DNA of 64,000 bases from sequence record QB031382.1; one strand, written 5' to 3'. Position 1 is the first letter of the stretch. Each line of letters opens with the position of its first letter. This stretch comes from a phage. Made by a program: the position numbers and the translations under genes. Positions 61,922-64,000 of this stretch are shown piece by piece. The notes under the pieces were generated by a model. It ran no database searches, was not told the origin of the DNA, and saw nothing but the letters and a program-made list of their open reading frames with translations.

Positions 61922-62012
61922 GGAGGGTAGGGAGCAATGGTGCTCAAGCGGTCTTGAAAACCGTCCCGTTGAGGATGACTCGATGATGGTTCGATTCCAT
62001 TACTCTCCGCCA
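61922..62012 (+). tRNA. tRNA-Ser(UGA): tRNA-Ser (anticodon UGA), long variable arm
   Basis: Acceptor GGAGGGT/ACTCTCC with one GU, loop CTTGAAA, T-loop TTCGATT, encoded CCA. Confidence 0.75.
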
Positions 62013-62110: not shown

Positions 62111-62207
62111 GCTAGGTAAGCCCTTTGGCAAGGGCGAGGATTTTTAATCCTGAAAATAGACGCGGTAGTCGTTGAATACATAGGTGGTTCGATTCCATCA
62201 CCTAGCA
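62111..62207 (+). tRNA. atypical tRNA-like gene, identity unresolved
   Basis: Perfect acceptor GCTAGGT/ACCTAGC, D-arm and T-arm (TTCGATT), but the anticodon region is a 6-bp hairpin AGGATT/AATCCT with UUU loop and about 30 extra nt; 97 nt. Confidence 0.4.
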
Positions 62208-62770: not shown

Positions 62771-62826
62771 GTATTAGTCTCCTTTTAGTTAGTTTCGATC
62801 TATTTAGGTTACTCAATTTTAACCCG

Positions 62827-62860
62827 CCCCGTTAGCTGTATAGCTGCGGGGTTTTTTCGT
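62827..62860 (+). terminator. rho-independent terminator
   Basis: CCCCG..AGCTG-TA-TAGCT..CGGGG extended hairpin followed by TTTTTTCGTTTC. Confidence 0.8.
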
Positions 62861-62875
62861 TTCTGGAGCCTTAAA

Positions 62876-63274
62876 ATGATTTCAGTTTTAACATGGCTGA
62901 GTAGGTATAGAGGGATCATAAAAGGTTTAGTTTTTGCAGCTGCTCTAGGCACAGCATACCTGGGGGCCGTGTATTGGTTTAACTCTAAGCTTAACGCTGC
63001 TTATCAGGAAGGTGTAACAGCAACAGAGTTGAAGTGGGAGCAGATCCTTGACCAGCAACAAAAGCGAGCCGACAGGATTAAAATGGGACATGCCGAGGAG
63101 GTGAAAAACCTTGAAAAATCCCTTTCTGACTTACAGGATAAGCTGGAGGCAGCTAAGATGGCAGGTAAAGAAAAGCAGATTATCTACCTTCAGTCGCCTG
63201 AGGGTAAGAAGTCAACACTACCTGACCAGCTTATAGATATTTATAACGAGAGCATTAATCAGGAGGGTAGATGA
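62876..63274 (+). CDS. i-spanin candidate
   Basis: N-terminal TM helix LVFAAALGTAYLGAVYWF then coiled-coil; 4-nt overlap with downstream lipoprotein gene. Confidence 0.55.
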   Translation: MISVLTWLSRYRGIIKGLVFAAALGTAYLGAVYWFNSKLNAAYQEGVTATELKWEQILDQQQKRADRIKMGHAEEVKNLEKSLSDLQDKLEAAKMAGKEKQIIYLQSPEGKKSTLPDQLIDIYNESINQEGR

Positions 63275-63558
63275 GAGCCGCCGTATTGTTAGTTACTTGC
63301 TTGCTGCTGTGCGGATGTGCGACAAGTGTCGAAAAAGAATATAAGATTGATCCTCCGGATGTGGGAAGATTGATTGTTAAACCGCCCGAAGGTGCTATGA
63401 AGCCTCCTGCTAAAGCTATACCTTTAAAGAAAGGTGCGCCTGATGCTGTGAATTCTGGCATTATGAGGGATAATAACCTGTCTTGCAGTAATGATAGGGC
63501 TAAATTGATCATTTTGCAAGACTATATTAGAACACTGTTTCCAAAGGAGAGAGGTTAA
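63271..63558 (+). CDS. o-spanin candidate
   Basis: Signal peptide with lipobox LLCGCA, Pro-rich mature region. Confidence 0.55.
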   Translation: MRAAVLLVTCLLLCGCATSVEKEYKIDPPDVGRLIVKPPEGAMKPPAKAIPLKKGAPDAVNSGIMRDNNLSCSNDRAKLIILQDYIRTLFPKERG

Positions 63559-63986
63559 TGTCTAAGATTTACGGACCGTGTTCTGAAAAGCAGAAGATGA
63601 TCCTTGAAAACGATGCAGACATTCTTGTCATTGGTGGTGCGGCTGGGTCAGGTAAGTCGTTCCTCCTGCAGTTGATGCCGCTTAAAATTATTGATGACCC
63701 ACACAGCTCTGTGGTTATGTTCCGAAGAACAACTCCACAGTTGGAAGGTGAGGGTGGGCTATGGCCTAAAGCAGTAGCTATTTACAGTGATCTGCCTGAA
63801 AACATTAAACCAAAGTTCAGAGAGAAGGATCATAAGTTTATTTTTCCACGGTTTGATCCGAGCACTGGTAAGTGGGACAGGAGCAAAAAAGGCGCTGTTG
63901 TAAAATACTGTCACATGGAATATGTCCAAGATAAGCTCAACCATCAAGGGCTTGAGTACACCATGGTTTGCTTCGATGAGGGTTAA
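63558..63986 (+). CDS. terminase large subunit, N-terminal ATPase segment only
   Basis: Walker A GGAAGSGKS and Walker B MVCFDE; frame closes at TAA 63984-63986 directly after Walker B, 14 nt before window end. Confidence 0.65.
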   Translation: MSKIYGPCSEKQKMILENDADILVIGGAAGSGKSFLLQLMPLKIIDDPHSSVVMFRRTTPQLEGEGGLWPKAVAIYSDLPENIKPKFREKDHKFIFPRFDPSTGKWDRSKKGAVVKYCHMEYVQDKLNHQGLEYTMVCFDEG

Positions 63987-64000
63987 TTTGTAGCTCTCGT

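Follow-up and report, generated by a model that had tools for sequence, protein, structure and literature searches.

The closest described counterpart of the locus analyzed here is the large terminase (TerL) gene of phage rV5, for which the genome paper has a section on 'Introns in terminase' and reports TerL in three segments, one with a homing endonuclease (Kropinski et al. 2013, Virol J 10:76, PMC3606486). The RefSeq record of rV5 presents the TerL CDS as a three-piece join (ORF64ABC, rv5_gp065) whose second gap harbours a gene for an HNH endonuclease. RT-PCR has shown that the TerL intron of phage CB7, from the sister genus Certrevirus, is spliced (PMC7344957), and the authors of the BASEL collection report having determined the boundaries of introns linked to homing endonucleases in the genomes of their phages (PMC8594841). 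For the Vequintavirus TerL intron, we found no experimental demonstration of splicing in the literature, where it stands on sequence inference only. The td, nrdB and sunY introns of T4 and the terL intron of Lactobacillus phage LL-H, similarly to that of CB7, are group I introns that interrupt an essential gene within one of its conserved motifs. Self-splicing of the T4 introns has been shown experimentally. These phage introns share with the element discussed here a stop codon that lies in frame shortly after the intron begins and the option of carrying a homing endonuclease ORF, looped out of the core; they differ in the host gene or the insertion site, and the similarity is limited to the catalytic core. 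In the case of T4 td, this similarity to the TerL intron of the relatives described below amounts to 83.5% identity over 79 nt (the P7-P9 region, 3' core).

The window, that is, the entire 64,000-nt stretch of record QB031382.1 that was analyzed, comes from a Vequintavirus, one of the rV5/FV3-like Escherichia coli myophages with genomes of about 137 kb (megablast). Its last 1.2 kb is matched by 120 GenBank phage records, and for its last 20 kb the best megablast matches among GenBank phages are the FV3-type phages EPFV3, SYGMH1 and FV3, at 96-97% identity. An additional 10 contexts, with 91-97% DNA identity to the window, were retrieved by exact look-up of the 142-amino acid protein encoded at its end. 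The gene order, with a tRNA cluster followed by the i-spanin, the o-spanin and TerL, is conserved. Within the tRNA cluster, between tRNA-Ser and tRNA-Thr, there is a 97-nt tRNA-like gene (62111..62207, plus strand) that scores 35.5 bits with the Rfam tRNA model (gathering 29); its anticodon loop reads UUUUUAA (apparently UUU), and its variable region is enlarged by a 26-nt insertion. ARAGORN reports it as 'tRNA-???' with a 4-base anticodon. This gene is conserved in HMD-6 (L003 3312..3408) and ECP26 (L004 3313..3409) and is not annotated in RefSeq rV5. The tRNA-Ser(UGA) (61922..62012, plus strand) scores 41.5 bits against Rfam tRNA-Sec (gathering 47), above its general tRNA score, which probably reflects just its long variable arm. 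On the minus strand, ~7-8 kb upstream of TerL, a SIR2-family gene adjoins a gene encoding a cREC_REC domain in all relatives from L005 to L014; by synteny, this pair maps to about 55.5-57 kb of the window. Also among the sequences similar to this region are ~18-20 GenBank MG0656xx records (e.g., MG065655, MG065654 and MG065672), labelled 'Campylobacter phage' with Campylobacter jejuni as the host, that are ~90% identical to window positions 62800..64000 and bear the same TerL introns. These records are probably coliphage contaminants or mislabelled.

The features at the end of the window are as follows.

63558..63983, plus strand: predicted TerL exon 1 (residues 1-142, the N-terminal half of the ATPase domain), from the ORF list, the Pfam Terminase_6N match and a protein sequence 100% identical to the first 142 residues of intact TerL from SYGMH1 and HMD-6

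63633..63659, plus strand: Walker A motif (P-loop) GGAAGSGKS, residues 26-34, from the translation

63969..63980, plus strand: Walker B motif CFDE, residues 138-141, directly 5' of the intron insertion site, from the translation

63976..64000, plus strand: predicted P1 helix across the 5' splice site (63983/63984), from RNA folding and from the Rfam alignment of rV5, which shows this pairing too

63984..64000, plus strand: predicted intron 5' end, 17 nt (TAATTTGTAGCTCTCGT), the same in 13 of 13 intron-bearing relatives and aligned at RF00028 positions 1-26 in rV5

The TerL reading frame opens with the ATG at 63558, which overlaps the stop codon of the o-spanin gene (TAATG) and also serves as the annotated start in the relatives, and closes with the TAA at 63984-63986, yielding a 142-amino acid product in which Gly142 (GGT, 63981-63983) separates the Walker B motif from the stop. 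Given that 14 bases remain 3' of the TAA, the stop codon is genuine and not an artefact of the window edge. The product matches Pfam Terminase_6N (E=8e-6; 26.1 bits, cut-off 22) at profile positions 2-104 of 215, which represent no more than the first half of the ATPase domain, and in a tblastn comparison of the intact 515-amino acid TerL of SYGMH1 with the window, residues 1-142 are 100% identical (E=8e-92). Large terminases of the T4-like type have an N-terminal ASCE ATPase domain with the Walker A and Walker B motifs, and both motifs are present in this ORF. The window lacks the remainder of the ATPase domain and the C-terminal RNase H-like nuclease (best E=0.03 when residues 143-515 were used in tblastn), and no second or complete TerL is detectable in its 64 kb (tblastn, next best E=0.03). 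Judging by these similarities, the ORF is a true gene rather than a chance reading frame, and the gene is TerL, with only exon 1 predicted to fall within the window. The initial annotation had described a TerL frame with the GGAAGSGKS and CFDE motifs that runs into a stop codon after 142 codons, and both the motifs and the coordinates proved correct. It had also proposed that the gene is interrupted and continues beyond the window, naming an intron first among the causes, and a group I intron is indeed located after codon 142 in the relatives. The opposite outcome, with a complete TerL elsewhere and no continuation, is not what is seen, given that the window contains no other TerL and the continuation is found downstream in every relative.

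The relatives show where the coding sequence breaks. In SYGMH1, TerL is a single unbroken ORF of 515 amino acids (L001 6759..8306) that reads …CFDEG-TQFEWEQIDYL… across the site in question, and the intronless FV3-type phages (SYGMH1, FV3 and EPFV3) cease to align with the window at 63979-63982, the end points for the intronless relatives as a whole being 63980-63983. By contrast, 53 of the 120 related GenBank phages, including rV5, HMD-6, ECP26 and several phages of the BASEL collection, align up to position 64000, and in these records an insertion of 318-884 nt directly follows codon 142. The intron-bearing loci examined (n=13) were drawn from four GenBank phages and the ten contexts, metagenomic or from assemblies, retrieved with the exact 142-amino acid product, one of which (L011) is itself a GenBank phage, OX460980. 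In all 13, the intron starts with the same 17 nt that close the window. For 11 copies, matching of the exon 2 pattern also located the 3' end; all of these start with TAATTTGTAGCTCTCGT and end with …ACG, the terminal G being followed by exon 2, which starts with ACR CAA TTC GAA TGG (TQFEW…). In silico removal of the intron restores an uninterrupted ORF of 515 amino acids in 9 of the 9 testable relatives with a single intron, and in two rV5-type loci yields an ORF of 249 amino acids that extends up to a second intron. The 362-amino acid product encoded downstream in the relatives matches Terminase_6N and Terminase_6C.

An in-frame TAA after just 142 codons of an essential gene could also be taken as the mark of a pseudogene, truncated through a nonsense mutation or a frameshift, or of a mistake in sequencing or assembly at the edge of the window. 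These explanations have next to no probability. The protein encoded by exon 1 is 100% identical to functional homologues, and what follows the stop codon is not a mutated TerL coding sequence but an exact copy of the 5' end of a known intron; together, these two observations exclude a frameshift or pseudogene. A one-off error is contradicted by the identical 142-amino acid product being called in 480 blocks of public assemblies. Of the causes considered in the initial annotation, the intron stands whereas the frameshift does not, exon 1 being in frame and 100% identical at the protein level.

The identity of the insertion as a group I intron is indicated by the P1 helix that can be discerned within the window itself. 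In this predicted helix, the exon strand AUGAGGGU together with the intron bases UA pairs with the intron strand UAGCUCUCGU; in particular, GAGGGU at the end of exon 1 pairs with GCUCUC of the internal guide sequence, whose strand of P1 occupies positions 63991-63998. The U63983·G63993 wobble marks the 5' splice site, so that exon 1 is taken to end at 63983, with Gly142, and the in-frame TAA corresponds to intron bases 1-3. A P1 helix in which a U·G wobble occupies the 5' splice site, one of the criteria for group I introns, is accordingly found in the window. Two further criteria concern parts that would be located beyond it and are seen in the relatives: a conserved catalytic core (P3-P9, with P7 as the guanosine-binding element) scoring above the gathering threshold, in rV5 and HMD-6, and a terminal guanosine (omega-G) with an exon junction that restores the frame. 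The fold of the window tail has a predicted energy of -9.8 kcal/mol (z=-3.5), with 1 of 200 shuffled sequences equally stable. The Rfam model of group I introns (RF00028, Intron_gpI; gathering score 50) matches the insertions in rV5 (L002 7175-7453, 84.9 bits, E=1.8e-21) and HMD-6 (L003 5175-5453, 81.4 bits) over its full length (model positions 1-253). Both matches begin with the sequence found at the window end, and the alignment opens with CGAUGAGGGUUAAUUUGUAGCUCUCGU, which corresponds to the last 27 bases of the window, that is, to P1. In the window, the only Rfam matches at the gathering threshold are tRNAs, as expected, because 17 nt of the intron are too short to score. Exon positions 423 (G) and 426 (T) are common to the window and all 13 intron-bearing loci, in contrast to A and C, respectively, in the intronless SYGMH1; these positions are relevant because they are needed for the P1 pairing and for the U·G wobble. 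Taken together, a group I self-splicing intron most likely interrupts TerL in this rV5/FV3-like coliphage directly behind the Walker B motif (with a probability of about 0.93). The remainder of the intron, along with exon 2, which is expected to begin with ACRCAATTCGAATGGGAGCAG… (TQFEWEQ…), would be located downstream of the window, as in the relatives, and the intron is likely to be spliced in vivo.

Under the proposed mechanism, the end of exon 1 would form P1 with the intron (GAGGGU with GCUCUC, and the U·G pair at the splice site), and after transcription the intron would excise itself by guanosine-initiated transesterification. Exon 1 would thereby be joined to exon 2 at the predicted junction …GATGAGGGT/ACRCAATTC…, and the spliced mRNA would encode the normal 515-amino acid terminase. 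The unspliced RNA, with the in-frame TAA as the first intron codon, would give rise to only the 142-amino acid fragment. This fragment, with its Walker A and Walker B motifs, might, speculatively, have a regulatory role in packaging. Alternatively, the insertion might not be spliced, in which case TerL would be made as two polypeptides, one with residues 1-142 and the other with residues 143-515, and these would reassemble, as has been reported for the NrdA of Aeromonas phage Aeh1 that is split by mobE. Aeh1 is cited in the CB7 paper as a precedent for an interruption without splicing (PMC7344957), and gene callers have annotated two 'terminase' CDSs in both HMD-6 and ECP26. This arrangement is, nevertheless, quite unlikely. 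The insertion is a complete, high-scoring group I intron, in which P1, the U·G wobble, a conserved P7 core and the terminal G are all present. The junction offers no start codon for exon 2: the called CDS begins ~11 codons in and is 362 amino acids long compared with the expected 373. The break in the protein would fall midway through the ATPase domain, just behind Walker B. Furthermore, the retention of P1-compatible exon bases in all intron-bearing alleles argues for selection on splicing.

Three configurations are found in the genus, two of them forms of intron 1 and the third with an additional intron. The ORF-less form of intron 1 (rV5, HMD-6) is 318-320 nt long and accounts for about 23 of the 53 copies, whereas the ORF-bearing form (883-884 nt), present in 30 of the 53 records, encodes a 196-amino acid protein of the Endonuclease_7 family (PF02945). 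The ORF-bearing introns of the ECP26/JES2013 type have the same 5' and 3' ends as the rV5 form, and the 591-nt ORF takes the place of the P8 hairpin. In ECP26 (L004 5396..6000), the ORF is located in the P8 loop, with its ATG embedded in a stem of 7 bp (GAATGTG/CACATTC) and its stop codon, TAG, in the conserved GAUAUAGUC core, which suggests that intron folding restrains translation of the endonuclease. The ECP26 intron as a whole does not reach the gathering score of RF00028; this is attributed to the interruption of P8 by the ORF because the rest of the ORF-containing copies (JES2013, A141 and rV5_ev158) is 98-99% identical to the rV5 intron. In about 19-24 records, there is also a second intron, with an HNH ORF, about 310 codons beyond the first. 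The 17 intron bases visible in the window are the same in the ORF-less and ORF-bearing forms and do not discriminate between them.

The presence of these ORFs, along with the many homing endonucleases and inteins known in Vequintavirinae genomes (PMC7344957), might prompt the view that TerL is interrupted by an intein or by a free-standing homing endonuclease gene rather than by an intron. The chances of either are minimal. An intein would stay in frame without a stop, whereas here the TAA follows at once, and an intein is excluded by this immediate stop codon. The ORF-less copies retain the same boundaries as the ORF-bearing ones, which excludes a free-standing endonuclease for the relatives, and the endonuclease ORF, where present, is inside the P8 loop of the intron. 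The homing endonuclease that the initial annotation had listed among the possible causes is at most an optional passenger of the intron.

With respect to its first 17 bases, P1, the gene and site of insertion (after CFDEG, codon 142) and the flanking gene order, the window is indistinguishable from the first TerL intron of rV5; it differs in having an FV3-like background (~97% identity to the intronless SYGMH1, FV3 and EPFV3) as opposed to an rV5-like one (~90-94%). The ECP26/JES2013-type intron likewise shares its insertion site and 5' end with the window and resides next to the nearest exon 1 allele, that of ECP26 (7 mismatches in 443 nt). Hence the window intron appears to be a known element, already described in rV5 in 2013, in a slightly different genomic background. 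What is mildly new is the occurrence in an FV3-like background, of which the sequenced members lack the intron, together with a cluster of synonymous differences at the end of exon 1. These differences are concentrated in the last ~115 nt (63869..63983, exon 1 nt 312-426), which contain 9 of the 12 mismatches to SYGMH1 and 6 of the 7 to ECP26; for these two nearest relatives the clustering has Fisher p=0.0006 and 0.002, respectively, values that are suggestive only, the boundary having been picked after the data were seen. Three of the exon 1 bases (312T, 336C and 381C) are private to the window relative to all 14 loci compared. The cluster is compatible with a co-conversion (gene conversion) tract derived from an unsampled donor. 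This synonymous patch hints that an FV3-type vequintavirus recently gained the intron by homing from such a donor, although this scenario is a long shot. If the gain was indeed recent, the intron beyond the window might carry an uncatalogued passenger ORF or variant.

Altogether, these observations leave current understanding unchanged, and their significance is mainly for annotation. Gene callers break this terminase into two or three CDSs labelled 'terminase' or 'hypothetical', and in ECP26 exon 1 is mis-annotated as a 'putative recombinase endonuclease'. Recognition of the intron leads to a correct joined CDS for TerL, which is a standard phylogenetic marker for phages. In addition, the polymorphism of the intron among the related phages, in both its presence and that of the endonuclease ORF it may carry, could be a small natural data set on homing and co-conversion.
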